A stretch of DNA of 63,339 nt, the filler included, from Stramenopiles sp. TOSAG23-2 (taxonomy: Eukaryota), in assembly GCA_900128395.1 (NCBI GenBank). It is 9 parts of 9 records of this genome, joined end to end, with 100 filler letters (N's around TTAATTAATTAA, not from the genome) between each part and the next. Parts side by side here need not be neighbours in the genome. Positions count along the whole stretch, not along the records: positions 1 to 25,938 come from LT649443.1; 8 more parts are not named here. One strand, 5' to 3'. Shown here in pieces: positions 3,776 through 41,754 of this stretch; the stretch's first letter is position 1, and each line of letters opens with the position of its first letter. Under the pieces are notes generated by a model that ran no database searches, was not told the DNA's origin, and saw only the letters and a list, made by a program, of their open reading frames with translations. The translations under genes were made by a program, and so were the position numbers.

Positions 3776-6700
3776 TCATATGTCCCTCCGTTTCCCATTG
3801 TAATGATCAATTTCTTCTTGGTATAATCTTGCTGCTTCCTCGCCATATGGCAATAATTCATCAACTCGTAATAAGAAGGATATACGTTCATGTATTGGAA
3901 CATCATATCGATCCCATAATTTTTCAACTCTGATTCTTGTTGCATTATATACATTTAATTGTAAATCATCATTTTTTTTCTTTTCATCTGCTTTTTTTAA
4001 CATTGTATTCAATGATTCTCGTGCACGTTGTTCACGTGTTTGCAATAAAATATGTTCTGCTGTTACCGTTTTTTGTCGTTGTGTATGATGTCGTTTTTGC
4101 ATTTCCAATTTTTGCACTGCATGATCATATTCAGCAGCATATCGGTTTGTTAATACATCATATACAGCATCGTATTTTTTTCTACATTTCAACTCTTCCT
4201 CTTGGATACGTAATTCGCCTTTTTCCTTTACAATTTTTAATTTAGATTTCCATTCATTTTCAATTTCATTGTAGATATCTTGCTTTAATTTATGTAATGC
4301 TTTTTCTTTTTGTTGCTTTGATTGATATTTTCGAAATTGTAACGTTTCTTTTTGTTGAATTAATTCTTGATTTAAACCATTTAATGTAGTTTGATGATTG
4401 GAATCTTGCAGCTTAATTGCCACTTTTAATTGTGAAAAATCTTCTGTTAATTTCTTCAATAAGCTTTCCTCATTATTTTTTTCATTCAATCGTGATGCAT
4501 ATCCTATTTTTAATTCGTTAATAGTTTGATCAAAAAAATGTGATCGACGTGCCATACGTGTTGTCATATCATCCAATTTTACACCTAATATTTTTTCCAG
4601 TTGTTCTTGTATATTGTTTGTTTCAACATTACGTTCTGTAGGTATGAAATTATGTTAGTTATTCATTGAATATCTTTTTATGCTGATGTTAATTAGTTAC
4701 TTTACTTACGTTTGTTTTGGAATGTATTACGTTTTAACAATTGATTTCGTTCAATACGTAATTTTTCAATATTACTAATAATCGATGAAATTGTTAAAAA
4801 TGAAGATGACGATGATGAATGTGGACTTTCCTTACTTTCCAAAATATCATCCAACCAACTCTCTGCATTTTTTAATTTATCTTGCATAAAAGATATATCA
4901 GCTTGCAATTCATCATTACGTTTTTGTAACATTTTACTATCACCATTTACTGCATTATTTAATGCTTGAATATTTTTTGATACGGCATAAATAGATCGAT
5001 CTAATATTTCCAGTTGCAACTCATGCAATCCATTCACCGAAACCAACTCTTCGTATTTCTGTTCATATTCTTCTTTTAATGAACTTAATTCCACATCCAC
5101 TGCTGACTGTAGAACACCAAGTCTTTTTAATGATATTGATGGGGGTGATGGTGTTGTAAAAGCAAGAACATTTATTGTGTTTTTGATATGATTATCAAAA
5201 ACAGATGGTGACGGTGATTGTTGTTGTGGTTGGGTTAGTTGTGAAGCTGATGCTGATGCTGATGATTCTGTTGCTAATGGTAATACTTTTGGAATTGGTG
5301 GTGGTGAAATTTTTGGTTCGACATTAACATCTCTAGTTTTTGTTGTTGCTGGTAATACAAGTGGCATTGGTAGTGGGTTAACAACCGCTTCATTCTTCGT
5401 TTCTACTTCAGCTTGTGGTGCACCTACCATATCAATTACTTTCGATTCTGTAATATTCTTTGTCATTTCAATTAAACGTGTGCTTCGTCTTCTACGCTTT
5501 TCTTTCATCATTGCTGTTCTTTTCTCCATTTTCACTTTCTTTTCCTCTGTTGCTTTAGTTGATGCTTGTAATTCATTCTCATCTTCAGGTGGAGGCGGCG
5601 GCGGTGGTGGTGGCGGTAAAACAGACTTACTTGATATTCTAACTACAGGTTTGTTATCTGAAGGGGGTAATGAAGGTATTGGTGGTCTTGTATAACTCTT
5701 CTTTGCTATTGCTTCTGCTTCCTCTTTGGCTTTTTGCTCTTCAAGTTTCTTTACGGCAGCAGCTATTGCTTCTTCATCATCTTTTGCTTTTTTTGCTTTC
5801 GCTGCTTTTTTTGCTTTTGCTTCTTTGTCTTCTTTTGCTTTTTTTGCTTTTGCTTCTTCATCTTCTTTTGATTTTTTTGCTGCACGTGCTTTTGCTGCAG
5901 CGATTGGTGGTGGTGGTGGTGGTCTGGCTTTTGGCAGACCATTTTTCGTCATTGTTGGCAATCCTGGCGCTTTGTTTTTCATAGCCATCGATGTAGGTGG
6001 AGGCGGAGGCCTAGACTTCGTTTTCTTAATTGCTGCTGCTGTTGCTTTCGGTGCCGGGGGCGGTGGAACTGTGAATATATTATTGTTAATGTATGTTAAT
6101 AAATTTATATATATTTTTATAAAAGGAAAGAAGCGGTAATGAAAAAATATTAATAAATAAAATACATACCTGTTTTACTAATACCAGTTGGTTTTGCCAA
6201 TCCTGGCGCTTGTTTTTTCATAGCCATTGATGTAGGTGGAGGCGGAGGCCTAGACTTCGTTTTCTTAATTGCTTTTTTTGCTTTCGTTGTTTCTTCTTGC
6301 AGTGCATTTGCTTTAGCTTCTTCATCTTTTGCTTTTTCCATGTCAGCTTCCTCTTTAGCTTTTTGCTCTTCAAGTTTCATTGCTGCATCTTTGGCTTTTT
6401 GCTCTTCAAGTTTCTTTACGGCAGCAGCTATTGCTTCTTCATCATCTTTTGCTTGTTTTGCTGTCGCTGCTTTTTTTGCTTTTGCTTCTTTGTCTTCTTT
6501 TGCTTTTTTTGCTTTTGCTTCTTCATCTTCTTTTGATTTTTTTGCTGCACGTGCTTTTGCTGCAGCGATTGGTGGTGGTGGTGGTGGTCTGGCTTTTGGC
6601 AGACCATTTTTCGTCATTGTTGGCAATCCTGGCGCTTTGTTTTTCATAGCCATCGATGTAGGTGGAGGCGGAGGCCTAGACTTCGTTTTCTTAATTGCTG

Positions 6701-10315: not shown

Positions 10316-10844
10316 GTTGTTTAATTATAATATAATCTGTCAAATTGTTTTAATTGAATATATTCTGTTTCGTATGTATCAGTATTGTTACATCTATCTG
10401 TCTATCTATAGATATATCTATATGTATCTGCAATCTATATATACATATATCGTTTACTAATAATAGTATATATGCTTGCTTCCATTAGCATAAAAATACC
10501 ATTACATCACATCAATACACACTTCGATTTAATCACTGGCCATTAATCACTCAATATAAAATAACATACACACAGCATTAAAAATAGGCGACAGAAAAGA
10601 AAACACACAGAATATGTCGTTGGAACCAAGATACAACATTAATAGGTTTTCATGTTTTCATACAATATTAAGGTTATAATACAGACCAGGACGAACGAAA
10701 AACACTCTTGGTTATATAAAATAATACATACATTTGTACATTTGTAGGTAATCATCAGATAAAAACAAAATTTTACATTTTTTATATTATACAGTATGCA
10801 TATTTAAAAGATACATAAATTATGTACTTCACGGCCACACCCTG

Positions 10845-13800
10845 TTAATCGATATCAAATCTGTCACGTCTATTTCGGTTCCTAGCTAACTTTTTATTTT
10901 TTGGAGACATACTAACTTTGATCATATTTCTAGGAACATTAGATTCGTCCGTACCATCATTATATGCAATATCATAAGTACCATCCCGATGCACCCGAGT
11001 TATATTGCCTGGAAACCATTTCTTACCTTCCATAAATCTTGCTTGTACAGCCATACCTTTTGCCAATTTGCCTCCAGCCTCGGCCTCATCACTTTCATCG
11101 TCGTCACTTCTACGACTTGATGATTTCTTTTTTGATGATGATTTTTTCTTTGATTTGATTTGACTTGTTTTAACACCTGATTTACGTTCACCATCATCAA
11201 ATTTAATATCATATGTACCATCTCGATTTTTACGTGTAATTTCACCACCATAATATTTAGTCCATCCACTAACTTTAGCTTCAACACGATCACCACGCTC
11301 ATATCCATCATCATCGCTGTCATCGTCGTCACTTCTACGACTTGATGATTTCTTTTTTGATGATGATTTTTTCTTTGATTTGATTTGACTTGTTTTAACA
11401 CCTGATTTACGTTCACCATCATCAAATTTAATATCATATGTACCATCTCGATTTTTACGTGTGATTTCACCACCATAATATTTAGTCCATCCACTAACTT
11501 TAGCTTCAACACGATCACCACGCTCATATCCATCATCATCGCTGTCATCGTCGTCACTTCTACGACTTGACGATTTGCCCTGCTTCCTCGTCCTTTTACT
11601 ATCAGTATCACTATCACTGTCACTGTCATGGCTTCTGGATTTTGATCTAGATTTTCTTTTAGATAATTGTTCATCACTATCACTATCGTTGTTTTTACGT
11701 CTGGTCTTTGATCTAGATCTACGTTTAGATGAATTGTCATCACTATCACTGTCACTACCGCGCCTTCTAGATTTAGATCGAGATTTTCGTTTTGCGATGC
11801 TGCCGTCACCATCACTATCACTATCACTATGCCTAGATTCATTTTTGGTTCTTCGTCTAGACGAATCATCGTCACTATCACTATCGTCTTTATTGCTTCT
11901 ACGCCGACGGGAATTACTACGACGCGGACTTTTTGAGCGTTTTCGGGGACTTTTCGATGATGAACGCCTTGGACTTTTTGAAGATTTCCTCCTTCGTCTA
12001 TATTCATCTTCATCGCTACTACTATCTAAATCGACTTTTCTTCTCCTACGTCGCTTGACATATCTTTGCTCATCTTCTCTATCGCTATCATCATATAATC
12101 GACGGCAACGGCGAGAATTCGTCCTTTTTCTATTGCCACTACTTCCCCTTTTGCTTCTGTAACCGTCATCATCACTGGAGTCATCATCTGAATAGGAGCG
12201 ACGTGTTCTAGACCTTCCACGGTGTCTTCGACTTTCACTGCCCCACGTGACAGATTTATCTCCATCTCTTCTGCTACGACGTCTGCCATATGATTCATCA
12301 TCACTGGAATCCTCATCTCTGTATGCTCTACGACTTGCTCTTGGAGACTTGCTACTTCTTCTTGGACTTCGCCTCTTAGATGAAGGGGTTCGAGACCGAC
12401 TTGAGCGGGAAGATCTATGTTTACTGCGGCTTCTGCTGCGTGATGGGGTGCTCCAGCCACTCGCTTTTGGGCTGATGGACTCGCTTAAATCATCGTCGGA
12501 ATCATCATACTGCCGTCGACGAGTTCGTGAAGACGAACGAGATGAAGTTTGTCGTCTTGGTGAACGTCTACGCGAATGGTTTGCGATTAAATCAATGGCC
12601 TCATCCGTGTCACTATCGTCGTCATCATCATCAAAAGTTTTTCGACGTTTAGTTCTAGACGTAGGTGTCCGAGCAGTACGCCCCCTGGAGGGAGTTCTTG
12701 GGGAAGAAGCTCGAATGCTTCTTCTACCTCTACGCACAGGAGATCGCCGTCTAGGACCACGACGATGACTTCGTGGTGATAAGTTGCTATCCTCAAGCTT
12801 TAATGGTTTAGGTCTTTTACGAACCAAACGTCTACGATGAGAGTTACCATTTTGCTCAGTAAAGGCAAGGAACCCTTTGATAAAATTGTAAAAATCAACT
12901 TTCCCATTAGTAGTAGCTGGTTTCGATTTAAAATATGCAACCACATCATCTCTAGCAATGCGCACCGAAAGCTGTGCATACCCTCTACCACTCTCTGCAT
13001 GGCTTAAAACTCCATCATTATCATTATCTACTACGCTAAATATTCGTTTTAATCTAGCAATTTCGTCTACGTCTAAGCCGGTTAATTTACCCACTTTTCT
13101 ATCATTAATTGGTGATGATCCACCATCTTCATCATTGTCCCATTTTTCCTTTTTCTTCCTTTGCTTATATTTATCATTCTCATCATCTTTATTTTTCTTT
13201 TTACTTTTCTGTTGAAGAGTTTTACGTTTTTCCCTAACATTATGACGGTTATTTACCAAGTCATCATCATCATTTGAAAAAATCGCCGTGTATGCTAATA
13301 CAAATTCTTCAAATGAAACTTTTTCATCGCCATTTTTATCCCTTTGCTCAATCCAGGAAAATACACGGCCAGCTGAGTCATCTTGACCAAGAAATCTCAT
13401 AGCAGTTTTAATTTCGTTAACGCTTACAGCCCCATCGCTATTTTTGTCAACTCTATCAAATGCTTCTTTTAGCCTGGTTACTATTTTAACTCTATCAGCA
13501 TCTAAAAGTGCCATGTAGTCTTCGACACGGCCAAAATCTACGCCATATTCCAATAAATCCTTTTCTCGCATTACATCTATAGCATTCATTAGTTTTCTTC
13601 GATGCATTGGTAATGATACGCCTAACATATCTTCCAAATCTCTATTACACAATTGTAATAATAATGCACCGTCTACAGCATTTCTTGCAAAGTTTGAACC
13701 TAACTGTGGCATTTCCAAAATGTCCTCAACCCACGCGACCACGTCTTTGACGGACCATTCATGTACATTATGATCATCCTTCGGTGCTGCACCATGTGTC

Positions 13801-14810
13801 AATCTATTTTTGTTTCGATAATTTTTATTATTTTTAAAACTCCTATTTAATCTATCCTGACCTGATTCACCACGCATGGGTGTTGTTGGTACTCTTCTAC
13901 CAGCCGCAGTTGGAAACAACTCGTACGTTGTATATTTCAATCTTGTACCATCAGATTGTACAATATAGACCGGATAATCACCAAATTCAGCTAAAAATTG
14001 CCTTGAAGAGCCAGATACCATCAACGTATTGCCATCATCATTCATTGCATCACATGTTATTACAATACCAGCAAATTCTGTTTGCCCATCACTACAAGCT
14101 TTAACAATAGCTGTACGCTCAGCACTTGCACGTAAACTTTCAACGCGACTTTCAATGTTACAGCCGGTGTAAACTTTATCACCTTTTGTTATGATTGCAG
14201 CACCATGCCTAACGCCATCTAGGTCAGGCACTGCATTTAATTGAGCATCTTGTGCTTTTGAAATTAACATTTCTAACTTAGTTGTACCTTCAGAGGAATA
14301 TGCATCTAGTCCAGTATAAGTTGACATGTATTTTTCACGATATTTATTTTCACGTTTCACTTCCTCTTCTCGATCATCCCCAACGTCATCATTTCCATCA
14401 CGGTCATTTTTTTTTTCATTATGTATATTATTTTCTGCAAATGCAGAGTCTTTCGTGCCATTTTTGGTCATTAAAAAATCTAACTCCATGGATGTTGATG
14501 ATTTTAAACCTGCTAACGCGCTTTCACCCATAGCATATGCAACTAAACCAGAGTCATAATCAACTTTTTTCTTTTTTTTATAAGATAGACTATATATTCC
14601 ACCAGTATTGGTCATTTTTCTAACATCTTGCAATAAAAATTCTGCCCGTTTTTCAACATCATCGGCAAATCTGCTTGACATTTGTTGCTGCATTAAAAAT
14701 TTACGGTCATTGTATGACTTTCGTAATGATTGGTCATTCTTGTTATATTTATTTGTGCTAAAATTTACACTTTTTGATAAGTTAGATCTACCATTTTTTT
14801 TTGTTTCCAT
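10845..14810 (-). CDS. Multidomain protein: degenerate cytidine-deaminase-like domain, SAM, EF-hands, RS/D-rich region and 3 Tudor/Agenet-like domains
   Basis: CDA-like GAAIITKGDKVYTGCNIES...SAERTAIVKACSDG...SGSSRQFLAEFG; SAM WSVKDVVAWVE...NAVDGALLLQL...HRRKL; EF loops DKNSDGAVSVNE, DKNGDEKVSFEE and DNDNDGVLSHAE; Tudor GDRVEAK...YYGGEITR...DGTYDIKFDDGE twice, plus a third diverged copy. Confidence 0.85.
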   Translation of the reverse strand: METKKNGRSNLSKSVNFSTNKYNKNDQSLRKSYNDRKFLMQQQMSSRFADDVEKRAEFLLQDVRKMTNTGGIYSLSYKKKKKVDYDSGLVAYAMGESALAGLKSSTSMELDFLMTKNGTKDSAFAENNIHNEKKNDRDGNDDVGDDREEEVKRENKYREKYMSTYTGLDAYSSEGTTKLEMLISKAQDAQLNAVPDLDGVRHGAAIITKGDKVYTGCNIESRVESLRASAERTAIVKACSDGQTEFAGIVITCDAMNDDGNTLMVSGSSRQFLAEFGDYPVYIVQSDGTRLKYTTYELFPTAAGRRVPTTPMRGESGQDRLNRSFKNNKNYRNKNRLTHGAAPKDDHNVHEWSVKDVVAWVEDILEMPQLGSNFARNAVDGALLLQLCNRDLEDMLGVSLPMHRRKLMNAIDVMREKDLLEYGVDFGRVEDYMALLDADRVKIVTRLKEAFDRVDKNSDGAVSVNEIKTAMRFLGQDDSAGRVFSWIEQRDKNGDEKVSFEEFVLAYTAIFSNDDDDLVNNRHNVREKRKTLQQKSKKKNKDDENDKYKQRKKKEKWDNDEDGGSSPINDRKVGKLTGLDVDEIARLKRIFSVVDNDNDGVLSHAESGRGYAQLSVRIARDDVVAYFKSKPATTNGKVDFYNFIKGFLAFTEQNGNSHRRRLVRKRPKPLKLEDSNLSPRSHRRGPRRRSPVRRGRRSIRASSPRTPSRGRTARTPTSRTKRRKTFDDDDDDSDTDEAIDLIANHSRRRSPRRQTSSRSSSRTRRRQYDDSDDDLSESISPKASGWSTPSRSRSRSKHRSSRSSRSRTPSSKRRSPRRSSKSPRASRRAYRDEDSSDDESYGRRRSRRDGDKSVTWGSESRRHRGRSRTRRSYSDDDSSDDDGYRSKRGSSGNRKRTNSRRCRRLYDDSDREDEQRYVKRRRRRKVDLDSSSDEDEYRRRRKSSKSPRRSSSKSPRKRSKSPRRSNSRRRRSNKDDSDSDDDSSRRRTKNESRHSDSDSDGDGSIAKRKSRSKSRRRGSDSDSDDNSSKRRSRSKTRRKNNDSDSDEQLSKRKSRSKSRSHDSDSDSDTDSKRTRKQGKSSSRRSDDDDSDDDGYERGDRVEAKVSGWTKYYGGEITRKNRDGTYDIKFDDGERKSGVKTSQIKSKKKSSSKKKSSSRRSDDDDSDDDGYERGDRVEAKVSGWTKYYGGEITRKNRDGTYDIKFDDGERKSGVKTSQIKSKKKSSSKKKSSSRRSDDDESDEAEAGGKLAKGMAVQARFMEGKKWFPGNITRVHRDGTYDIAYNDGTDESNVPRNMIKVSMSPKNKKLARNRNRRDRFDID
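11096..11570. repeat. Tandem 225-bp duplication encoding two identical Tudor-like domains
   Basis: tcgtcacttctacgacttga recurs at 11101, 11326 and 11551. One visible synonymous difference (gtaatt/gtgatt). Confidence 0.9.
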
Positions 14811-15555
14811 ATTAATTGTTTAATTTGACTATTGCTTCTATAAATATATGTATCTTCGAGGTGAATTATTATATTTGATACGTCTATATATTATGATGTC
14901 TTATTTATATTTATATATAAATATTTATATGATCTAATTCTCGTTTAAATCTTTTTGTAAGATAGGTATGTATATGTTTCTATCTTTCTATTTCATATTT
15001 ATATATGTATTTGTCACTGTAAAAGCAACTATTCTTCTAACTGCCATTGCCAATTTTTAATTATATTTTCAAAATAACGAAATATCTAAGGAGTGATAAT
15101 ATCTATACGATATACGAGGTACATAGCGTTATGAAATACGGTTGATAGGAAAGTTGTACTTAAAATGAGAGTGGTCTACGACCCTCGTATGAAAAGTCAC
15201 ACTACTGTACGAGGGCATATCTTCATAGTAATAGCTTTAAATGATACACTCATCACATCATATACTACCAAGTACATAGGCTAGCACAACAACAACAGTA
15301 GGATGATATGCAATACCAAAATACCAAAATGACACAACAAGGTCAAATAAAATCGAAAATGTTGAATAATAATGGTATATTGAGATATTGAGATGCCATA
15401 TAAGCAAAGATCTTCTTTTAATTAAATACAAGTTAGATACACAGGTTCGCATAATACAATATGTGTAGACATATCTATTTGGAAAAAAAAAAGGATCATC
15501 AAATAGCAGCCACACGGGAGAGGGAAAGAATTTTCATTAGAAGAAGAAGAGTAGA

Positions 15556-16839
15556 ATGGCGTCAATATCGGAAACGAATAGCCCATCAAGTAAAAAAGGA
15601 GAAGGGGAATGGCCAACTGGTGCTGAGCATTATATATTGAATAAAGATAAGGATTTAATAGGTAAAGGTGCATTTGCTAATGTTTATCGTGCGTATTGTA
15701 ACCCTCGTAATTGTTATGTTGCAATTAAAATCATGGACTTAGAGAAAGTTACCAATGGATTGACAGATATCCGTAACGAAGTATCGACTATGAAAACATG
15801 TGTACATAAAAATGTATTAACTTGTCACGCTTGCTTTGCTGTTACAGACGAAAAAGGGAAAGATAAGTTATGGATGATTATGCCATATATGGACCGTGGT
15901 TCTGCTTTACATTTAATACGTTTGTTAAAAGAAGGTGGTGTACGCGAAGGCTTGCCAGAAACATGGGTGCGGTATATACTTTCAGAAGCATTGCAAGGGG
16001 TGAAATATTTGCATGATCAAAATTTATTGCATCGTGATTTAAAAGCTGGAAATATTCTTTTAGATAGTGAAGGAAACGTAAGAATTGCTGATTTTGGTGT
16101 CTCCGGTTGGTTACAAGAAGGTGGTGACCGTAAAAACAATCGTATGACATTCGTTGGAACACCATGTTGGATGGCTCCAGAGGTGATGGAGCAAGCTGAT
16201 GGATACTCCTATCCTGCTGACGTATGGTCCATGGGAATTACTGGTTTAGAATTGGCGAAAGGATTTGCACCATATGCACGGTATGCACCAATGAAAGTTT
16301 TGTTGAAAACATTGCAAGAAGCTCCACCGACATTACAATCATATGCAGATGAGGCGAAAGATAAGAAAACGGGAAAAGTACCACCAGCAGCGTCAGGCAC
16401 AGATTGGGTTAGGAAAAACAAGCAATTTCAAGAATTCGTGAATAAATGTTTACAACGAGAACCAGACAAACGACTTACAATATCAAAGTTATTAACCATG
16501 AAATATTTTAAAAATGCACAATCAGGAAAAGCTGATATCGTGAAACAAATTCCTGAATTATTGCCAGGAGCATTCCAGGAGAAACAATTAAAGAAAATAC
16601 CATCACAACTTAAAACAGCGGGAGAAAAGGCTATAACGGGACATATACAACATGGCCGTAAATTTGTACCAGGCGTAGATTTTGATTTTTCAGATGATGA
16701 AGTGGAAGAAGAAGAAGAAGTAGAAACAGGTAAAAAGGAATCTGCTAAGGACGGTGAAGATGAGGTTGCGAAAACTGTTGATTTAGACAACGTGACGGAC
16801 AAAAATTTTGGTGATGTATTTAATGCGGAGACGAATTAA
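15556..16839 (+). CDS. STE20-family Ser/Thr kinase, OSR1/SPAK/Fray-like
   Basis: GKGAFA, VAIK, HRDLKAGNIL, DFGVS, TFVGTPCWMAPEVMEQ, and the subfamily-typical APMKVLLKTLQEAPPTL. No C-terminal CCT domain is evident. Confidence 0.92.
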   Translation: MASISETNSPSSKKGEGEWPTGAEHYILNKDKDLIGKGAFANVYRAYCNPRNCYVAIKIMDLEKVTNGLTDIRNEVSTMKTCVHKNVLTCHACFAVTDEKGKDKLWMIMPYMDRGSALHLIRLLKEGGVREGLPETWVRYILSEALQGVKYLHDQNLLHRDLKAGNILLDSEGNVRIADFGVSGWLQEGGDRKNNRMTFVGTPCWMAPEVMEQADGYSYPADVWSMGITGLELAKGFAPYARYAPMKVLLKTLQEAPPTLQSYADEAKDKKTGKVPPAASGTDWVRKNKQFQEFVNKCLQREPDKRLTISKLLTMKYFKNAQSGKADIVKQIPELLPGAFQEKQLKKIPSQLKTAGEKAITGHIQHGRKFVPGVDFDFSDDEVEEEEEVETGKKESAKDGEDEVAKTVDLDNVTDKNFGDVFNAETN

Positions 16840-17248: not shown

Positions 17249-18433
17249 TTATGACATCATCATATTGTTGCCATTCATCTTTTTCTTATTATTATCATTT
17301 TGATCATCTCTTGTTGTAAATTCTCCTTTACGTTTGCGATTTGAAACATCATTCTGCTCTTTTTGTTCCTTTAACTCTTTCTTCAAATTGGTTATTTCTT
17401 CGCCTTGTTCGATTATTTTATTTCCTAAACGTTCCAGTTCTTTCATAATAACTGAATGAAGTTTACTATTAGAATTCTCATTTTGGTTAATACGGAGTAT
17501 TTCAGCATCCAACTTATTTAAATGTGTCTGTATCATTTCATCATCCCGTGCATTATGATCAGAATCTTCCAGCGTTGTTTGATTTTGATTGCTATTTTCT
17601 GGTGTTGGCTCTTGGCTTGAAGTCAAAGAATTATTATTGTTATTGTCCAATTCAACATTATTTGGTTCAAACGAAGGTTCCTCTTTGTCGTTGTTGTTAT
17701 TCACATTATTGTTGATGGTATTAGATGTAGGTGGTAGCAGTGGTGGTGCAGTCATTTTCATACCAACATCAGTATTGTTTACGGTGCTTTCAACATCATT
17801 CTTTGCAGTTTTTTCGTCATTATCGTCATGATTATTGTTATCATTTGTGGAGCTACCGTTTTTTTCTTCCTTAGGATGACTATCATCAAAAGTCGCTTCA
17901 ATGCGTTGATCAACTTCATCCTTCGTCAACTTCATCGAATTATTGAATTCATATTTTGTATTGCTACAATATTTCGCATCAAATTGTGCTCTAATTTTTT
18001 TCAAAACTTTTTCACATGCCTCCCTTTTTGCTTTTGCCTTTCGCTTAGCTGTGTTTTTTTCGATTTTGTTTGGCAAATTCGAAGTAGCGTCATACTTATA
18101 ATCGACTGTTGCTTGACACTCATAATTATCATTTTGAAAACATTTCACAATACACGTTATAGTTTGTTTTACTTGGTTGGTTTTATATTTTGGATATTTT
18201 TCTTGATGAAATTGCATACTTTGAACAAATGAATTTAATCTTGAAATCGGGTCCTTAACATCAGCTGCATCCCTTTCGGCAGAAGGTGATATATAACCTT
18301 TCGGCAGAAAGTAATTGTTCGTTCTTCTATCATTATTCCACCGGCTAGGGTTTCTGCTTTGATTATTATTATTGTAATAATTGTTATTATTGTGATTATT
18401 TGAATAATTGTTATTATTGTTATTATACATCAT
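17249..18433 (-). CDS. N-rich protein with a divergent double-stranded RNA-binding (dsRBD)-like domain and a C-terminal coiled coil
   Basis: DPISRLNSFVQ...YPKY...ITCIVKC...KRKAKAKREACEKVLKKI follows the alpha1 and KKxAK..AA..L pattern of dsRBDs. Confidence 0.6.
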   Translation of the reverse strand: MMYNNNNNNYSNNHNNNNYYNNNNQSRNPSRWNNDRRTNNYFLPKGYISPSAERDAADVKDPISRLNSFVQSMQFHQEKYPKYKTNQVKQTITCIVKCFQNDNYECQATVDYKYDATSNLPNKIEKNTAKRKAKAKREACEKVLKKIRAQFDAKYCSNTKYEFNNSMKLTKDEVDQRIEATFDDSHPKEEKNGSSTNDNNNHDDNDEKTAKNDVESTVNNTDVGMKMTAPPLLPPTSNTINNNVNNNNDKEEPSFEPNNVELDNNNNNSLTSSQEPTPENSNQNQTTLEDSDHNARDDEMIQTHLNKLDAEILRINQNENSNSKLHSVIMKELERLGNKIIEQGEEITNLKKELKEQKEQNDVSNRKRKGEFTTRDDQNDNNKKKMNGNNMMMS

Positions 18434-30580: not shown

Positions 30581-31322
30581 TCACATAGAAAGAGACACAC
30601 ACGCACACAGACACAAAAATATTGCGTATCAAACGAAGAAAAAAATTCAAAGATGAAAAACACAAATCAATGTAATATTTGAGATAATTTGTCTTTTTCT
30701 TCTATTGTTTTTGTTTATATCTCTTTCCTCTTTTTACCGATAATTACCTGGATTACTATTTTTATGTTGTAATTTTAATAATTATTATTCAAAAAAATAA
30801 TATTTTTTACTTTTTTGGAAGAAGAAGAAGAAGTACTACCTGTAGTTGTTTTCGTGGTGGGTGGTGGGGTGGTGGAACCTCCTAGTGCTATTCATATGCT
30901 ATTTGATCGGAAGAAGAATTATGACAGGGTTGTAGCTTAGTCGAGCTAGCTCGACGCTTCTTCGCAGCGAAGCGAAGAAGCTAGCTGAGCTAGTTGTAGC
31001 TATAAGAAGCTATCGCCTACTGCCTGGCTAGAGCTAAGCTATTGCAATGCTATTCAGCTATATGAACCACTACTGTTGCGAAAAGATGAACCTGGTACTA
31101 TTGGAATAGTACCTGTATACAGACTTTTTTAGAAGTCTGGTATATATCTAGTTGTCTGCATGTATGTATATAGTGCAACCTCATATATGTGCTAGTAGTT
31201 TACGAGGTACCCAAGAAAATAGATATTATACACAATATACGACAACCAAAATCAATTCAAACAAACAAAGGAGGTACAAACGTCTTTTGCTCAACACACA
31301 ACAACATACAACGATAAGAAAG

Positions 31323-32096
31323 ATGTCGACGAATGAAAAGGTACCATCAACAGGTCTTTTTCAAACAAGTCCTCAGGAAACAATTCAAGACATTGATAAT
31401 AATTCAGAACAATTGAACAATACAATGGGTCGAGTTGCAATTATTGGGGCTGGGATTTTCGTTACTGCTTTTACCGTCAATCTAGCTTGGGACGTAGTAT
31501 TAGCCAGAGAAAAATATTTATCTGATAACGGTGTATCGAGATATACTAACTATAACTCTAAATATGTTTTCATGGATCTACTTTTGGATTGTATGAGATT
31601 AGCAAAGCGTAAGTCTAAAGTTGAAAAAACTGCAGCTACTGCTGTCCGGCGTAGGTCTTCGGGAATCACCGGGTTATGCGCAAAAATTGAAAAGACTCTT
31701 GCAAAGAATCAAAAAGATAGTAAATCTAAGAGGATCGTGAGGAAAAATCCTGATTATCTAGTTCCAAGCGTATTTCACTTTCTTTACGAACCGTGGCGTG
31801 TCAACAAATTCCAAAAGAAACTAGTTATGGTGCCCCAAACAGCCGCCAACATGAAGAAAGAGTTGGAAAAAATGAATCAGGAACTAATAAAATTGAGGAA
31901 GAAACATGAACAAATGCATGATCGCGTGCATTATCTGAAGTATTATTACTATCCTTTCTCACAATTTACAACAAACAAGGTGCTTTTGATTGCGTATTTT
32001 TTATGGATAATATGGTTCATACTTTCTAATTTAGAATATAAAAACGTATTTTGTTCATGCGAACCTTTAAGTTTCAGCAACATTACATACAATTGA
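31323..32096 (+). CDS. Uncharacterised membrane protein with two TM segments and a coiled coil
   Basis: First ATG in a good context at 31323 (MSTNEK). TMs VAIIGAGIFVTAFTVNLAW and VLLIAYFLWIIWFIL. Confidence 0.6.
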   Translation: MSTNEKVPSTGLFQTSPQETIQDIDNNSEQLNNTMGRVAIIGAGIFVTAFTVNLAWDVVLAREKYLSDNGVSRYTNYNSKYVFMDLLLDCMRLAKRKSKVEKTAATAVRRRSSGITGLCAKIEKTLAKNQKDSKSKRIVRKNPDYLVPSVFHFLYEPWRVNKFQKKLVMVPQTAANMKKELEKMNQELIKLRKKHEQMHDRVHYLKYYYYPFSQFTTNKVLLIAYFLWIIWFILSNLEYKNVFCSCEPLSFSNITYN

Positions 32097-32457: not shown

Positions 32458-35190
32458 TTATAAAGTTTTGTATAATAATGCAGGCGCAAATCCCATTCTT
32501 TTTGCATATGCTCTTTTTTCATCATCAGTTACTCGGTCTGTTTGCCAATATCCACTACTTCCACGTCTTTGATAACGCTTTTTCTTCATGTCAAATACTT
32601 TTTCTAAATCACATGTTGTCATATCTGCAAAAATTTCATCTGGATTTAATGGTATATTTCCAGTTACACCAAATTGAACTTTAAGTGCTTTCTTCAATGG
32701 TGACTTTCTTGCCCATGGTGCTGGCGGTTTCTTCTTCTTTTTAGGTTTTCCATCATCATCATCACTATCTGATTCTGAATCGCTACTATCACTACTAGAA
32801 TGTGGATCTGACATTCTGTAACTTTTCTGTGCTTTTTCTTCCACTTGCTCTTCTTTGCTATTATTTTTCTTACTACTTTCTAACTTTGCCTTTTGTTTCG
32901 CGGCTGCTGCTGCTTTTAATTTCTTTTCCATATCCTCTCTTAATTTTCTAGCTTCTGCTTCTCTTTTTTTACGAATCTCAGTTGCAGTTTCTTTAACTGC
33001 AGCTTTTTTACTATATTTATTATTATTACTTCTCAAATTTCGTTTTGCTTCCTCTTTTTTCTTTTGTTCTATTTTAGCTTTTTTTGCTGTTTCCAATGCT
33101 TTGATCTTTCCTACTTTATTTTTACTTGGCTTAATCACAGGTGCTTTGCCTTTTGCTACAATAGGTCCTTTAACTAAACGTGCACCACCTTTACCCTTTA
33201 GAGCTGTCGTAGTTGCACCAGCGACTTTTGCTGAAACAGCAGCTGCACTAGTAGCATTGTTAATACCAGTTTTATCATCACTTTTTAATTTCGCCTCTGC
33301 TTCTCTTCTAGCTTTTGCACGTTCTCGAATTTTTAAACGCATTTTTTGAGCTTCATTCATAACTTCTTCTTCATTTGCTGATTTAGTATTACTATTATTA
33401 TTATTTGTCGCAGTTATTGTTGTTTTTGCTACTGTTACATTAACAACTTCATCGATATTGGATTTCTTTTCTGTGCTATGTTTTTCAATATTACGCCCAA
33501 GAAGCACTGGAGTTGAGACTTCTTGCGTTTTGATTTTGTTCAATTTATTGCGGATACTTTCCAATCTTTTAGCACTTGAATTGCTACCTGACTTTTTATT
33601 ATCATTCTCATCATTATTACTATTGCCACTAATATCAGATTCTTCTACCTCCATATCAATTTGCTCTGTTCCATCCATAGATATACCGTTTGATTTTAAA
33701 AATTCAGTAATATCTTCCTCACTATTTCCTGTTTCATTTATTTTATCATGATCATCCTCATCATCATTACCATTACTAATACTGGTTTCTTCAACAGCAA
33801 TATCATTTTTATCTGCTTCTTCTTCCTCCTCTTCTTCCTCCTCTTCTGCCAGAGCTTGTAATAATTCCTCAGCAGCTTTAATTCTTTCTTCTTCTGCGGC
33901 TTTTTCTTCTTCTGCTATTTTTGCCAATCGCAATCGTTCTGCTTCTTCCTCCGCAACTTTTAATTTTGCTAATCTCTCATCTTCTTCTTTCTTCAATTTT
34001 AATGCTAACGCTTTTGCTTCTGCAGCAGCTTGTTCCTGTGCTTCTTTTTCTTGCTGTTCTTTTAATAATCGTTGCTTCTCCGCTTCAATTTCTACTTTAA
34101 TCTTTGTAACAATTTGTTTTGCAAAACATTGACGGGCAAATGATTGTATCTTAATTGCAGCATTGTTTTTCATATAATCCATGCGGAGTTTGTAAAATTT
34201 TTTGCGAGCAACGTAACTACGGAAAAATGAAGAAATTTTTGTAGCAGCAATGGCATTTTTGATTTTTTGTTGTTTTTCTTGTTCTTGTAGAATTTTTAAT
34301 TCCATTTCTTCTTTCAATTTCTTTTCCTTTGCTTCTTTTTCCGCCGCTTCTTTTTCTGCTGCTTCTTCTTCTTGTTGTTGTTTTCTTTTTTCATTTAATT
34401 CGTCGCAATCATCGTCCTCTGTAATAGTTTCTAATGATACAGAGTTTAATGATATTGTTTTAGCAGACTCTTCAACAGTTTCAATAGCTTTTTGTTCCGT
34501 GTTGTTATTATTATCTTGATTTTCATCTTCTTCTTCTTCTTCTGCAGCTTCCTTAGCGGCATCTTCAGGGAAATTCAAAAATTCTTTCTCCTCATCAAAT
34601 TCTTGTTTCATCATTTTGACTAATTTTTTCACTAATTGAGCTTTTCGACCTCTTAATTCTTTGCCAGAGCATCCAAGCATTTTTAATTCTTCTCGAATTT
34701 CTGTAACTTTTAATTGCTTGACCTTTTTTGTAGCTTCTTTAACATTAAAAACTTCCGCAGATGCATTACTATTTAAAATCAGATCAACTTCAGATGATTT
34801 TCTTCGTTTAACTTCCGAATTATTATTATCTTCTTCTGATTTACGTTTTGATTTTTTTTTACTTTTGTTTTCAGAAATAGTTTCGTTTGTTACGTTGCTT
34901 TTACTGCCATTTTCAATGTTTGCGATATTATCATTCGATGAAGAGCTTTCACTTAATGGTTTCACACCTTGTTGTTGTTGCAATAGTGCCTTTTTATCAT
35001 TACTACTAGTTTTAAAACGTTTTTTACTTGATGTTTCCAAATAATTTTCTAAAGTTCGTTTACTTTTTTGAACCCAAGATTTCGTCCAATTGATGTTCTC
35101 CGTATTCATTTCATTGATTTCGTTCTCATAACCTTTATTTGTTTCCTTCATTTTATCAAGCCAAACATCTAATGTTTGCCCTTTTGACAT
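32458..35190 (-). CDS. INCENP: Inner centromere protein INCENP-like (IN-box) with SAP-like domain and two IQ-like motifs
   Basis: C-terminal IN-box SYRMSD...acidic...PAPWAR..L..AL..Q...NPDEIF....CDLEKVF......RRGSSGYW..D; long charged helix; SAP-like LKVTEIREELKMLGCSGKELRGRKAQLVKKL; IQ-like AATKISSFFRSYVARKKF and AAIKIQSFARQCFAKQ. Confidence 0.85.
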   Translation of the reverse strand: MSKGQTLDVWLDKMKETNKGYENEINEMNTENINWTKSWVQKSKRTLENYLETSSKKRFKTSSNDKKALLQQQQGVKPLSESSSSNDNIANIENGSKSNVTNETISENKSKKKSKRKSEEDNNNSEVKRRKSSEVDLILNSNASAEVFNVKEATKKVKQLKVTEIREELKMLGCSGKELRGRKAQLVKKLVKMMKQEFDEEKEFLNFPEDAAKEAAEEEEEDENQDNNNNTEQKAIETVEESAKTISLNSVSLETITEDDDCDELNEKRKQQQEEEAAEKEAAEKEAKEKKLKEEMELKILQEQEKQQKIKNAIAATKISSFFRSYVARKKFYKLRMDYMKNNAAIKIQSFARQCFAKQIVTKIKVEIEAEKQRLLKEQQEKEAQEQAAAEAKALALKLKKEEDERLAKLKVAEEEAERLRLAKIAEEEKAAEEERIKAAEELLQALAEEEEEEEEEEADKNDIAVEETSISNGNDDEDDHDKINETGNSEEDITEFLKSNGISMDGTEQIDMEVEESDISGNSNNDENDNKKSGSNSSAKRLESIRNKLNKIKTQEVSTPVLLGRNIEKHSTEKKSNIDEVVNVTVAKTTITATNNNNSNTKSANEEEVMNEAQKMRLKIRERAKARREAEAKLKSDDKTGINNATSAAAVSAKVAGATTTALKGKGGARLVKGPIVAKGKAPVIKPSKNKVGKIKALETAKKAKIEQKKKEEAKRNLRSNNNKYSKKAAVKETATEIRKKREAEARKLREDMEKKLKAAAAAKQKAKLESSKKNNSKEEQVEEKAQKSYRMSDPHSSSDSSDSESDSDDDDGKPKKKKKPPAPWARKSPLKKALKVQFGVTGNIPLNPDEIFADMTTCDLEKVFDMKKKRYQRRGSSGYWQTDRVTDDEKRAYAKRMGFAPALLYKTL

Positions 35191-37671: not shown

Positions 37672-40137
37672 ATGAATAACATGAACATGGAAATGATGAT
37701 GAGGATGATGCAACAAATGGGTAGTGGTGCTGGTTTCGGAGGTATGATGGGAGGTGGTGGAGGTGGAATGACGAACGGTTTTGAAGGTGTTGGAAAATTG
37801 AAGGGCCATGAAAGTAAATTGTTTCGATATCAACTTGTAGTATTTAGAACAGAATATATGGAGGAGGGATTTCAACCATGTGAAGAATATGATGGAAAAT
37901 ATGTTGAAGGTGAGCTTATAAATATGTTGACACCGCATCATAAATTACAGCTTGCTGCTGATCTTGCAAAAGGGTTGTTAATAAAGTCTACGCCATTACC
38001 ACCGGAAACGATACTCCATCATGCTTTATTTTACGACTTGATGTATCGAAGATTAGTAACTGGGATTGAAGTTGAGTGTGACCAACAACGCATAGAGGAG
38101 TACGATATGGAGAAACGGAGAGAAGAAGAAAGGAAGAAGAAATATTTTGATTCTTTGAGTAAAGAAGATCAAGAAGATTTAAAAAAAAAAGAAGAAGAGA
38201 AAAGACGAAAAGAGTATAAAACGTATGAAGGACGGGCAAGTAAAACCATGTTGATAGGCGAAGCACTTACGCGAAAAGAAGAACGTGAAGCAAAACTGAG
38301 CAAAAAAATGGCAAAAAAAACAGGATTAAAAGGTGCTGATGAGGATGTATTGAGAAAAGAAATGGAATCTGAAGAATCGGATTATAATATTGAAAGCATG
38401 GCAAATGAATTTGTTGAACGGACTGAAAGTATTGCAGCTGATTTTTTCACAAATAATAATCGTAGCAATAATCAACAAAGAATTATTGATCTAGATGATT
38501 GTGAATACCATTATACACACCGTGCACTTCTGTCCAATATAATAATTGAGAGAAGTTTGAAACGAGGTATGAATTTTCCTGGACTTCCATCACTAGAAGA
38601 TAATGAATGTGATAATTGGATACATCTAATGCGTTTTCCATATGGTACAACTCTTATTGGTTTAGATGAGGATGAATCTAAATTGATTCATAATAATAGA
38701 AGAAATAAAAATCAAAGGGCGAAACTTGCTCGGAATTTGTTGCTTGAAAATATTGTCAAAAAAGCTCAAAAAGTGTTTGAATCTTCCTGGAATGTAAATG
38801 AAGCTGTCTTTTGCGAACGCCTTTTATTATGCCTCGGCAATTGTGGAGCTGCACAAGGTCATCAAATCCCTATTGTTTCCGGGGTAAAAGACCCAACTGA
38901 ACCTACTTTTGCAGAGATACTTGCATTTAAACGTGACGAAAATAATATATTATCAGTACTTTCAAAGATTACTTGTGATACATGTGATTGTGATTGTACT
39001 GAAAAATCATGGCATGTTGAAGAAACGTCGTTGGATTTTTGTGAAAAGTGTATCAAAGATATACAAAGTAAAAGTGTATTACAATACTACGGTGTTGATG
39101 CTGATGAAAACGGTTTACCAATAAAAAATTTAATGTTGAAGAAAATTCACTATGAGATTAAAAAACTGGATAGATGGTTATGGTTGGATAATTATTTTGA
39201 ATCTATGCGGGTGAATGGAAGAAATACTGATAATATAAAACATGTTTACAAAACGTTACTTGAAGTTGGAAAAGAACATGTAAATATTGATGTACAAAAA
39301 TATGGATATTATGATTTTAAAAAACAAGAGTGGGTAGAGCCTCACACGCTATACAACTTTAATGTATATGAACATCCCAAAAAATGGCGTAAAAAATGGT
39401 ATGTTAGTATTAGCTAGGCTGCTTTTTTAGCTTGTATATATCACAACTATTACATAGATTGTATAATTTTATACAGACATTGACAACTAACAAACACTCT
39501 GTGACAATTTATAAATCCTTTTTGCTCTTCATATGGCTTTCATGCCTACTACTTAAGGCATGATGAAAATTCTAAAGTTACCTGTTCAAATAAAAAGTGC
39601 AACAAGACTGATACGAAAAGTATGATGAAAATGTGCGAGGGTTGTCGGGTCGTATGGTATTGTTGTAAAGATTGCCAAACAATTTCATGGAATGAAGGTG
39701 GTCATAAGAAAGATTGTAAAATTCTACGTGAACGTTCAAAAATGGATTATGATGAAAGTGATTTCGAAGCTGTCGCAGAATGTAAAGTATGCAAAGCATC
39801 ACAAGTAAATTTATTTAGGTGCAGCCGTTGTCGTTCTGTGTCATATTGTAGCAAGGCATGTCAAACGTTGCATTGGAAAAACGGTCATAAAAAAACATGT
39901 ATCCCTGTGAAAAAGAAAACTTCAACTACTACCAGTGGTAGTGGAAGTGATGAAAATCCTAATGTAGCTAAGGGAAAAAAAGAATCTACTAATAATTGTA
40001 ATCATGTTACAGGTGCTGCAGCTGCTGTTGAAATATCTATTGATAAAACAACAAAGAAGAAAAAAAAGAAAAAGAAAAAGAAGAAAAAGAAAACAAGCAT
40101 CTTGGTGTCGGCTACAACAGAAGATGGAGAGGAGTGA
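37672..40137 (+). CDS. Protein with ZZ-like finger and two MYND zinc fingers; 2 exons (37672-39398, 39558-40137)
   Basis: Intron 39399-39557 (GTATGT...TAAG) restores KKW-HDENSKVTCSNKKC...CEGCRVVWYCCKDCQ..W..GHKKDC. Second MYND is CKVC...CSRCRSVSYCSKACQTLHWKNGHKKTC. ZZ-like CDTCDCDC...LDFCEKC. Confidence 0.85.
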
Positions 40138-40668: not shown

Positions 40669-41754
40669 ATGAATAATTTAATTGTTGAAAATACAATGTC
40701 TCGTACGTTATTACAAAATGTAACTGGTATACATCCAAGACCAAATCCAGATTCTCCAACATTTTTACAATCCTCGTGTCTATCCGGGAAATATTGGTTG
40801 ATACAAGAAGATGAAGCTGGTCCGTTGTCACAATGTGTAGTAACTGTCATATTCCGTGGTGCTCCTAGTATTATTTTCATGGCTATTTTAATGCTTGACG
40901 TATTTCTTGGATTAGAGCAACCTTTAGTAAAAGCACCTTTAAGTTTTACGTTTACTGTAAAATTAATATCGATTTTCATTTTATTTATGGGTTGTTTCTT
41001 CAATACATATTTTTGGAGCACGATGTATCGGAATGAAGATTATGTCGTAGTTAGTGAGGAAAGCGTTGAAATCTTACAAGCTGCAGCATGGTTGTTGAGT
41101 GGTGTCAGTTTGTATTTAGGGTATAATCGTGCCCGTGAACAATCTATCAGTTTACGTCTGTATATAAGTATAGAATCATTCATGAGTTTATTATTATTAT
41201 TTTTACGTCCAAAAGGATTTAAAGATAATGTTTTAGATAATGTAAATCGACCATTGTATTACATTGTGTTATTAGATGTTATCCGAGTTTTGAGCAATTT
41301 ATTATTAGCATTTTTAATGGGATATTATCCACGAGATGTGCCTGAATATTCAGATATCATCATTCATTATAAAGATACTTTGTTAATGGAAAGCCGTAAT
41401 AATAGTAATGGTGGCGGGGGTAATAATGATATTGTTGGTTTAACATCATCATCTAGTTCAGATCCTATTAGCACAAATAATATGATTAATTATGGTAGTA
41501 CTTCTGCTAATCGTAATTATAGCAATGATATTAATTATTTTAGTGATAGTACTGATGGAGAAGAACAATTCAGTCCAACAACGCAAGAAAATATAAATCG
41601 CGTCAATATGATTAAACATGCATTGAAAAGAGGATCAATGGAATTTATGCATGATGATGATCATCATCGGAACAACAACAATGTCGACTCTGATGAAATG
41701 GTGTACAATCATCTACTGGGTGATACAAATAAGATGTTGTCGTCCTCCGTATGA
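40669..41754 (+). CDS. Five-TM membrane protein resembling a stand-alone ABCC/MRP TMD0 domain
   Basis: LSQC....P.II first helix, about 5 hydrophobic helices, AAAWLL...LRLY pattern, disordered C-terminal tail, and no nucleotide-binding domain. Confidence 0.5.
   Translation: MNNLIVENTMSRTLLQNVTGIHPRPNPDSPTFLQSSCLSGKYWLIQEDEAGPLSQCVVTVIFRGAPSIIFMAILMLDVFLGLEQPLVKAPLSFTFTVKLISIFILFMGCFFNTYFWSTMYRNEDYVVVSEESVEILQAAAWLLSGVSLYLGYNRAREQSISLRLYISIESFMSLLLLFLRPKGFKDNVLDNVNRPLYYIVLLDVIRVLSNLLLAFLMGYYPRDVPEYSDIIIHYKDTLLMESRNNSNGGGGNNDIVGLTSSSSSDPISTNNMINYGSTSANRNYSNDINYFSDSTDGEEQFSPTTQENINRVNMIKHALKRGSMEFMHDDDHHRNNNNVDSDEMVYNHLLGDTNKMLSSSV

Follow-up and report, generated by a model that had tools for sequence, protein, structure and literature searches.

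A predicted catalytically dead member of the stramenopile deaminase-SAM-Tudor family in Stramenopiles sp. TOSAG23-2

The window analysed here is a stretch of 63,339 nucleotides of DNA, filler included, from Stramenopiles sp. TOSAG23-2 (GCA_900128395.1), made up of nine parts of nine records joined end to end. One of its genes encodes a protein of 1321 amino acids (aa), P0001, which, as judged from its sequence, is a member of the stramenopile deaminase-SAM-Tudor family and belongs to the catalytically dead type. Its N-terminal deaminase domain has a cytidine deaminase (CDA) fold in which the three zinc-binding cysteines are replaced by serines; this domain is followed by a SAM domain, two EF-hand pairs, a long Arg/Ser/Asp tract and three Tudor-like domains. 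That all of these lie in a single open reading frame (ORF) had been proposed in an earlier note on this DNA, and is borne out by Pfam, composition and alignment (Table 1). The explanation that we favour and regard as fairly probable is that the zinc-free, dead deaminase tetramerises and forms the core of a calcium-responsive, multivalent and probably nuclear scaffold that reads methyl marks.

The deaminase assignment is well founded. The earlier note had claimed a genuine CDA fold with the Glu and the N-I-E motif kept and three Cys changed to Ser, and this stood up to comparison with Pfam, PDB and Foldseek and to a check of the codons. The Pfam family dCMP_cyt_deam_1 (PF00383) matches aa 178-253 with an E-value of 9e-7 and 29.2 bits (cut-off 25), and a phmmer search of PDB with aa 165-310 returns human CDA (1mq0, E 1.6e-18) and mouse CDA (E 1.4e-16), the best PDB matches all being cytidine deaminases. 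An AlphaFold2 (AF2) model of aa 150-320, built from a 39-row alignment, has a mean predicted local distance difference test score (pLDDT) of 86.9, and Foldseek matches it to the mouse (2FR5, E 5.8e-13), human and Bacillus subtilis CDAs at E about 1e-12, with template modelling (TM) scores of 0.8-0.87 normalised by the target, a root mean square deviation of about 2 Å and 34-36% identity. The domain thus both scores and folds as a deaminase.

In human CDA the essential zinc, which activates the catalytic water, is held by C65, C99 and C102, and E67 is the catalytic residue (PMC12386326). In the PDB alignment, where the human chain numbering and the residue numbering differ by six, these cysteines align with S229, S266 and S269 of P0001 (codons AGT, TCT and TCA) and E67 aligns with E231. 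The residues A230-E231-R232 and N218-I219-E220 are retained. Neither of the two motifs of active CDAs, as defined in Table 1 of PMC3239186, is intact: C[H]AE of helix 2 reads S-A-E in spite of Glu 231, and PCxxCR of helix 3 reads V-S-G-S-S-R (aa 265-270). The Glu at the end of strand 5 is present as E297 in Y-E-L-F-P, compared with E-L-L-P in human CDA; this column holds Glu in 10 of 14 stand-alone CDAs and in 25 of the 39 Cys-less homologues introduced below. Compared with the homotetrameric CDAs (1MQ0, 2FR5, 1JTK), P0001 shares the fold, the catalytic Glu, the Arg next to it, the N-x-E motif and E297, but it has Ser in place of the Cys triad, Val in place of the Pro before the second ligand and Val/Ala/Glu in place of the pocket Phe/Phe/Tyr; it also adds an N-terminal helix, and its deaminase-like domain sits inside a multidomain protein. 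Because a domain without the zinc site cannot activate water, we infer that P0001 does not deaminate.

The loss of the cysteines is not peculiar to this protein. A HMMER search with aa 1-700 against 1.84 billion representatives returned 3701 hits with E-values of 1e-3 or lower, 34 of them at 1e-30 or lower, and 69 distinct rows covering the deaminase domain were collected from the best 150 of these hits and from later look-ups; some of the rows are near-duplicates, so the counts that follow are not independent. The Cys triad is absent from 39 of the 69 rows, comprising 28 that are fused to SAM and lack the full triad and 11, mostly fragments, in which SAM was not detected. The remaining rows read C/C/C at the three ligand positions, 16 of them fused to SAM and 14 being stand-alone or other proteins. 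In the 39 Cys-less rows the first ligand is replaced mostly by Ser (S 29, T 7, P 2, A 1), the second by Asp (D 20, T 7, S 7, and C, E, N, A and G once each) and the third again by Ser (S 31, A 4, T 3, C 1). The closest relatives, P0169, P0173, P0175 and the fragment P0171, all 63-78% identical to P0001, read T/S/S, with the motifs T-A-E-R and L-S-G-A-S-R, only ligands 2 and 3 being readable in P0171, which is cut at its N-terminus. P0002, 56% identical over aa 160-520, reads S/D/S (S-A-E-R and P-D-G-N-S-R), and the MAST-4 protein P0004, the nearest named relative (57% identical), reads T/C/S. Word-based homologue searches, which gave 1 and 20 hits, serve for close relatives and are no census.

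Among the named members, those with C/C/C are all oomycetes (Pythium oligandrum, Pythium insidiosum, Plasmopara halstedii and Thraustotheca clavata), whereas the Cys-less ones are the labyrinthulomycete Hondaea fermentalgiana and MAST-4. In a quick tree of 33 CDA-SAM-EF rows, built with no outgroup, the C/C/C rows group together, the Cys-less ones fall into several deep clades with good support, and the Cys-retaining label requires 2 changes. When the 13 C/C/C rows were constrained to one group, the approximately unbiased (AU) test gave p 0.073. A single C/C/C group, which was in any case defined with the tree already in view, is thus neither demonstrated nor rejected. The earlier note had read P0001 as a pseudo-enzyme in an intact ORF, provided that close orthologues did not keep the zinc cysteines. 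They do not; and because the loss is conserved both in the closest relatives and in deep clades, it is, on the evidence of these alignments, a conserved pseudo-enzyme state and not the decay of one copy.

Two side observations concern the same rows. In the oomycete-type fused C/C/C members (P0006, P0007, P0012, P0014, P0020 and P0030 among them) the Asn of the ribose-side N-x-E motif is present in 2 of 16 rows and the Glu in 9 of 16; the motif is mostly lost in the fused members that retain the zinc ligands, and is kept more often in the zinc-less ones. Because N-x-E is mostly gone in the former and the zinc ligands are gone in the latter, the two subfamilies have lost complementary parts of the active site. 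A protein of 298 aa, P0067, has two tandem CDA-like domains and may belong to the two-domain PITG_06599-like clade given in Table 1 of PMC3239186.

The protein architecture as such has been in print since 2011, and the suggestion of the earlier note that it represents an undescribed system was therefore mistaken. Iyer, Zhang, Rogozin and Aravind (PMC3239186) described, from computational sequence analysis, a stramenopile-restricted branch of CDD/CDA deaminases that combine an N-terminal deaminase with SAM and 1-22 Tudor domains. In the text of that paper the oomycete forms appear as potentially active RNA editors, and it is proposed that the Tudor arrays assemble a ribonucleoprotein (RNP) whose deaminase acts as an editor of small non-coding RNAs. 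P0001 agrees with this description in its stramenopile lineage, its N-terminal CDD/CDA deaminase, the SAM domain directly after it, the C-terminal Tudors, whose number of three lies within 1-22, and its direct homology to the oomycete members; it differs from these in lacking the zinc ligands. The Ectocarpus version of the branch, comparable here by its published description, likewise joins a deaminase classed as inactive to Tudor repeats, but has 23 of them. Two EF-hand pairs lie between SAM and the Tudors in P0001, and EF-hands occupy this place in many fused relatives, oomycete ones included; the words "EF-hand" and "calcium" do not occur in the text of PMC3239186, figures aside. The Ser/Thr-Asp-Ser replacement, the recurrent EF-hand pairs and the family-wide loss of pocket aromatics described below would thus be new relative to that text.

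When searched with the P0001 domains by phmmer, distant homologues have the order CDA, SAM, EF, EF, linker and a variable number of Tudors. This order recurs in proteins of Pythium (P0007 of Pythium oligandrum, E 2.8e-55 over query aa 156-509), Plasmopara (P0030 of Plasmopara halstedii), Thraustotheca (P0016) and Hondaea (P0009); it is shared with oomycete, labyrinthulomycete and MAST-4 homologues that have from one to about 31 Tudor repeats, and the homologues with the same order show 24-57% identity and come from four named stramenopile groups. In Pfam, deaminase, SAM, EF-hand and Tudor are all found in three of nine relatives, and SAM only in three others. In P0030 the deaminase and EF-hand matches fall below the threshold and Tudor has no Pfam match, and the short P0002 and P0004 have deaminase (below the cut-off in P0002), SAM and EF-hand matches and end before any Tudor array. 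At least one EF-hand pair is present in most fused rows by phmmer, and Pfam finds EF-hands in six of the nine relatives, in one of them below the cut-off. Three relatives with 20-31 Tudor repeats are Cys-less, namely P0009 from Hondaea (S/S/S), P0018 (S/D/T) and P0167 (S/E/S).

The substrate pocket is altered beyond the zinc site. Three aromatic residues of CDA, which we take from CDA crystal structures to stack on and close over the pyrimidine, are replaced in P0001: human F36 (Phe in 13 of 14 stand-alone CDAs) by V200, F137 (Phe in 12 of 14) by A303, and Y60 (Tyr in 9 of 14) by E224. All three positions are replaced throughout the fused family, and because the oomycete members that keep the zinc ligands are included in this, the replacement argues against ordinary nucleoside deamination in the family as a whole. 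The case for ordinary nucleoside binding is likewise weakened as far as the alignment goes; the Cys-less forms could still accommodate a different ligand.

When aa 150-320 were modelled in four copies, the score was 0.78, compared with 0.25 for the best of three controls. In the calibration of the tool, which used two copies and not four, 21 of 30 solved homo-pairs and 0 of 23 single chains attained its mark, and the score may here reflect a memory of solved CDA tetramers. The pLDDT between partners is at least 70, the runs agree in at least 52% of contacts, and the modelled interface takes in the helix with S-A-E-R and the segment S266-F272. An oligomerisation role of the deaminase-fold domain is thereby supported at the level of the model. 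The earlier note had offered two roles for the domain, a sensor or an oligomerisation hub; it is the hub that gains from the four-copy score, and the sensor that loses from V200, A303 and E224.

The domains that follow, SAM and the EF-hands, would serve self-association and calcium binding. In the AF2 model the SAM domain has a pLDDT above 95, and the SAM half is matched by Foldseek to self-associating SAM domains, those of CNK/HYP, Shank2/3, DGK-delta, SARM1 and Ph/Scm; the EF half is matched to the N-lobe of calmodulin, centrin and troponin C. The E-values of these searches are weak (2e-3 or weaker), since each match covers half of the query. Three of the four EF loops fit the 12-residue pattern D-x-[DNS]-x-[DNSG]...[ED], so Ca2+ binding is predicted, and the region of the second pair aligns with aa 616-693 of P0002. 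The recurrence of EF-hand pairs in oomycete and non-oomycete members implies calcium control, again as a prediction. A compact SAM-EF calcium switch of the STIM type was considered and is not supported: the domains of the model of aa 335-520 have a pLDDT of 84.4, but the predicted TM score (pTM) is 0.52, the hinge between the long C-terminal SAM helix and the entering helix of EF-hand 1 is of low confidence, and the matches cover one domain only. STIM1 and other STIM proteins do have an EF-hand pair beside SAM (Caenorhabditis elegans STIM, 6pw7, is at Foldseek rank 40 with E 0.023), but the order in P0001 is reversed, with SAM preceding the EF-hands. A search of the ESM Atlas gave at best 0.78 to a SAM/EF cluster, which is below the lead level, and was not used.

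The linker that separates the EF-hands from the Tudors holds 52 RS/SR dipeptides and basic runs such as KRRRRRK at aa 919. In spite of the RS-rich tract, Pfam matches up to E = 1 do not include the RRM of SR splicing proteins. In part of the linker basic (K/R/S) and acidic (D/S) blocks alternate; they are encoded by an imperfect 66-bp tandem repeat at 11607-11793 (2.8 copies, 71% matches).

The three Tudor-like domains resemble methyl-lysine readers. Above the cut-off only Pfam families of this class are found, i.e. Tudor_5 (39.8 bits, cut-off 31), Tudor_3 (36, cut-off 25.8) and 53-BP1_Tudor (30.9, cut-off 22) in P0001 and SGF29_Tudor and Agenet in relatives; the Agenet match at aa 1264-1292 of P0001 (25 bits) is just below its cut-off of 27. 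LBR_tudor is also among the Pfam matches of P0001 and its relatives, and the SMN/TDRD-type family PF00567 was found in one relative only, below the cut-off. A profile of the three repeats compared with solved structures finds PHF20 (E 5e-6), 53BP1 (E 3e-4) and PHF20L1 (E 1e-3), and also KDM4A and SGF29. These are the best solved-structure matches and agree with the Pfam families of one class, but the similarity is distant and the repeats of P0001 are single barrels in series. Across 125 repeats of the family five aromatic columns are conserved (Y/F, Y/W/F, Y/F, Y/F and Y/F), and the third repeat of P0001 has Phe in the first of them. The Pfam and profile matches suggest reading of methyl-lysine, i.e. 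of chromatin, instead of the dimethyl-arginine reading invoked in 2011. Repeats 1 and 2, which have the same protein sequence, lie in a 225-bp tandem duplication at 11086-11576 (2.2 copies, 98% matches). Since family members have between 1 and 31 Tudors, the array seems to expand through recent duplications of its unit.

The favoured reading can now be set out as a mechanism. The zinc-free pseudo-deaminase domain would serve mainly as a tetramerisation core, in which the Ser/Thr, Asp and Ser that stand in for the cysteines probably tether the two helix ends once bridged by zinc. The tetramer would present four copies of SAM, allowing further self-association, and four sets of Ca2+-binding EF-hands, through which it might be regulated. 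The charged, presumably disordered RS-like tract has basic runs that resemble nuclear localisation signals, and each chain would carry three Tudors of the 53BP1/PHF20/SGF29 type acting as methyl-lysine readers. As a multivalent scaffold responsive to Ca2+, the assembly would bring together methylated chromatin or RNP proteins in the nucleus.

Several points weigh against this reading, in addition to the two reservations about the four-copy score given above. The first aromatic column of the Tudors is Val in repeats 1 and 2, while among the 125 family repeats it is Tyr in 52% and Phe in 22%. The pTM of the SAM-EF model gives no support for a fixed SAM/EF unit, and the nuclear location, judged probable, is drawn from composition only. 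Full-text literature searches returned no other paper on the family and no experiment on any member, so that the remark in the earlier note that no protein with this architecture has been characterised is literally true as far as these searches show. In the RNA contigs described below, the junction between CDA and SAM is reached by two contigs that meet with an overlap of 9 bases only, and no contig in the four runs bridges it by at least 31 letters. Finally, the 39 Cys-less rows retain the catalytic Glu in 35, the Asn (N218) in 22 and the ribose-side Glu (E220) in 21, a degree of conservation beyond what structure as such would require, and one that allows for ligand binding.

This last point favours an alternative that we consider unlikely, in which the domain is a ligand sensor: its zinc-less pocket would bind a pyrimidine nucleoside, a nucleotide or an unpaired C of RNA without converting it and, together with Ca2+, would control assembly through its SAM and Tudor domains. 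P0001 itself keeps N218, E220, E231 and R232, and the Asn is retained far more often in the Cys-less rows than in the oomycete fused rows with the full triad (2 of 16, as given above). A regulatory RNA-binding role has also been suggested for inactive deaminases, in a passage on Perkinsus proteins (PMC3239186). The replacement of the pocket Phe/Phe/Tyr throughout the fused family speaks against it, however, and much of the transition-state-like binding energy would be gone with the zinc and its bound water.

A bolder version, to which we give little credence, takes the Ser/Thr-Asp(Glu/Ser)-Ser triad for a repurposed site that binds a hard metal or a small ligand with the help of the retained Glu, Asn and Glu. 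With the EF-hands the tetramer would then act as a sensor that gates chromatin or RNP bodies formed through the Tudors, the dead form being the usual one in non-oomycete stramenopiles. Were this true, it would overturn the editing hypothesis of 2011 for most lineages.

That the protein is still an enzyme, which uses Ser/Asp(Ser)/Ser and the Glu with another metal or with none and edits small RNAs in a Tudor-assembled RNP, strikes us as very improbable. The replacements are non-random (S/T, D/E/S/T and S), small and polar or acidic, and conserved in deep clades, and the catalytic Glu is kept; but we know of no zinc-dependent deaminase-fold enzyme that works without His or Cys ligands, and in the clade of P0001 itself the second ligand is Ser or Cys and not Asp, so the acidic residue is inconstant. 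The hypothesis of editing in this family was printed for its active members, the same text classing the Ectocarpus version as inactive (PMC3239186), and the three-Cys-held zinc that activates water in human CDA is essential there (PMC12386326).

The last alternative takes the deaminase part for what is left of a pseudogene, or for a gene of its own that became attached to the rest by chance or through an artefact of assembly or annotation; it is close to refuted by the conserved domain order in the homologues, the confident AF2 model of the domain and the observations on the gene itself that follow. The frame of 3966 bases is uninterrupted and stop-free, and a 365-aa database fragment, P0003, is 100% identical to P0001 and has the same first Met. 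Metatranscriptome contigs from four runs of four studies cover parts of 10869-14883; no single contig in these runs spans the whole gene, which, with the CDA/SAM junction described above, is what this alternative has in its favour, but no splice-like joint was seen in the CDA/SAM region in the four runs. The stretches 10400-10868 and 14884-15700 have no contig cover in these runs, which does not count as evidence. One contig, whose shorter side has 23 letters, skips 176 bases from 11628 to 11805; the skip falls within the repetitive linker and is probably an artefact of the repeat. The data are consistent with a single transcript for 10845-14810. At least half of the sampled words of the gene are contained in 16 sequencing runs (DNA and RNA) from 13 studies, and 40-59% of the sampled words are present in six RNA-labelled runs.

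Population variants in the same contigs point the same way. Among the variants listed, and with counts that rest on 40 of 45 variants from the contigs of four runs, 13 of 16 are synonymous in the folded half (aa 135-640), compared with 5 of 21 in the Arg/Ser/Asp linker, where 16 of 21 change the protein. The variants listed for the deaminase domain comprise three synonymous changes and one conservative one (I206V); a TCA>TCG change at 14004 leaves S269 unchanged. The pattern is that of purifying selection on the folded half.

Few lineage-specific multidomain families are predicted to mark a nucleic-acid or chromatin pathway specific to stramenopiles, and the deaminase-SAM-Tudor family is one of them. 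Its zinc-less form is widespread and conserved, with a recurrent Ser/Thr-Asp-Ser in marine heterotrophic stramenopiles and in a labyrinthulomycete. Together with the loss of the pocket aromatics and the recurrent EF-hands, this form moves the working model away from an RNA editor and towards a multivalent scaffold regulated by calcium, and points to the labyrinthulomycetes as a tractable test system.

Table 1. Features of the P0001 gene in the window, with predicted domains (positions count along the whole window)
Feature	Position	Strand	Evidence
Whole gene P0001, 1321 aa	10845..14810	-	single ORF, no internal stop
N-terminal motif aa 40-72, no Pfam match	14595..14693	-	found by phmmer in P0002, P0015 and P0031; aligns with P0002
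Helix aa 150-164 before the deaminase fold, no Pfam match	14319-14363	-	conserved in the family (R-E-K-Y...G-L)
Family-specific helix (aa 150-164) and cytidine-deaminase-fold domain (aa 165-310), no zinc ligands	13881..14363	-	Pfam, PDB, AF2, Foldseek
S229, position of zinc ligand 1 (human C65), codon AGT	14124..14126	-	alignment and codon check
S266-G-S-S269 (TCT GGC TCT TCA), positions of ligands 2 and 3 (human C99, C102)	14004..14015	-	alignment and codon check
SAM domain aa 349-415	13566..13766	-	Pfam SAM_1 (aa 350-415) E 4e-13, SAM_2 E 2e-10
EF-hand pair 1 aa 445-507, canonical loops at aa 455 and 491	13290..13478	-	EF-hand_7 E 6e-15, 55.7 bits (cut-off 30)
EF-hand pair 2 aa 584-649, canonical loop at aa 595 and a degenerate loop	12864..13061	-	second EF-hand_7 stretch; SAPC2_N E 6.6e-4, below cut-off
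Arg/Ser/Asp low-complexity linker aa 660-1087 (428 aa)	11550..12833	-	R 25%, S 24%, D 13%
Tudor-like domain 1 aa 1094-1145	11376..11531	-	Tudor_5, Tudor_3, 53-BP1_Tudor
Tudor-like domain 2 aa 1169-1220, protein identical to domain 1	11151..11306	-	225-bp tandem repeat, alignment
Tudor-like domain 3 aa 1250-1299, 39% identical to domains 1/2	10914..11063	-	Agenet 1264-1292, alignment

The window is AT-rich (G+C 25-41%) and dense in long uninterrupted ORFs for ordinary eukaryotic proteins. A tblastn search of the window with three stand-alone CDAs found no CDA besides the domain of P0001. A scan for bacterial promoters and terminators downstream of the gene gave 5 sites, compared with 6.1 expected from shuffles; in a eukaryote such sites carry no meaning. 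Eight long ORFs of 310-586 aa, at 4702-5988, 17249-18433, 31164-32096, 37672-39417, 40669-41754, 44431-46191, 46955-48667 and 50332-51489, are without a Pfam match at E up to 1e-5. Other ORFs of the window encode a ThiF/E2-binding E1-like enzyme, an FYRN/FYRC protein, TYW2, a TLC-domain protein, a GMC oxidoreductase, a Kelch protein and a pseudouridine synthase. A divergent protein kinase gene (427 aa, 15556-16839 on the plus strand, Pkinase E 4.5e-58) lies 745 bases upstream of the start codon of P0001. It is also worth mentioning that a 910-aa ORF at 32458-35190 (minus strand) has an INCENP ARK-binding box at its C-terminus, and that an ORF at 41995-43602 (minus strand) encodes a carotenoid oxygenase of the RPE65 type (E 1e-104).

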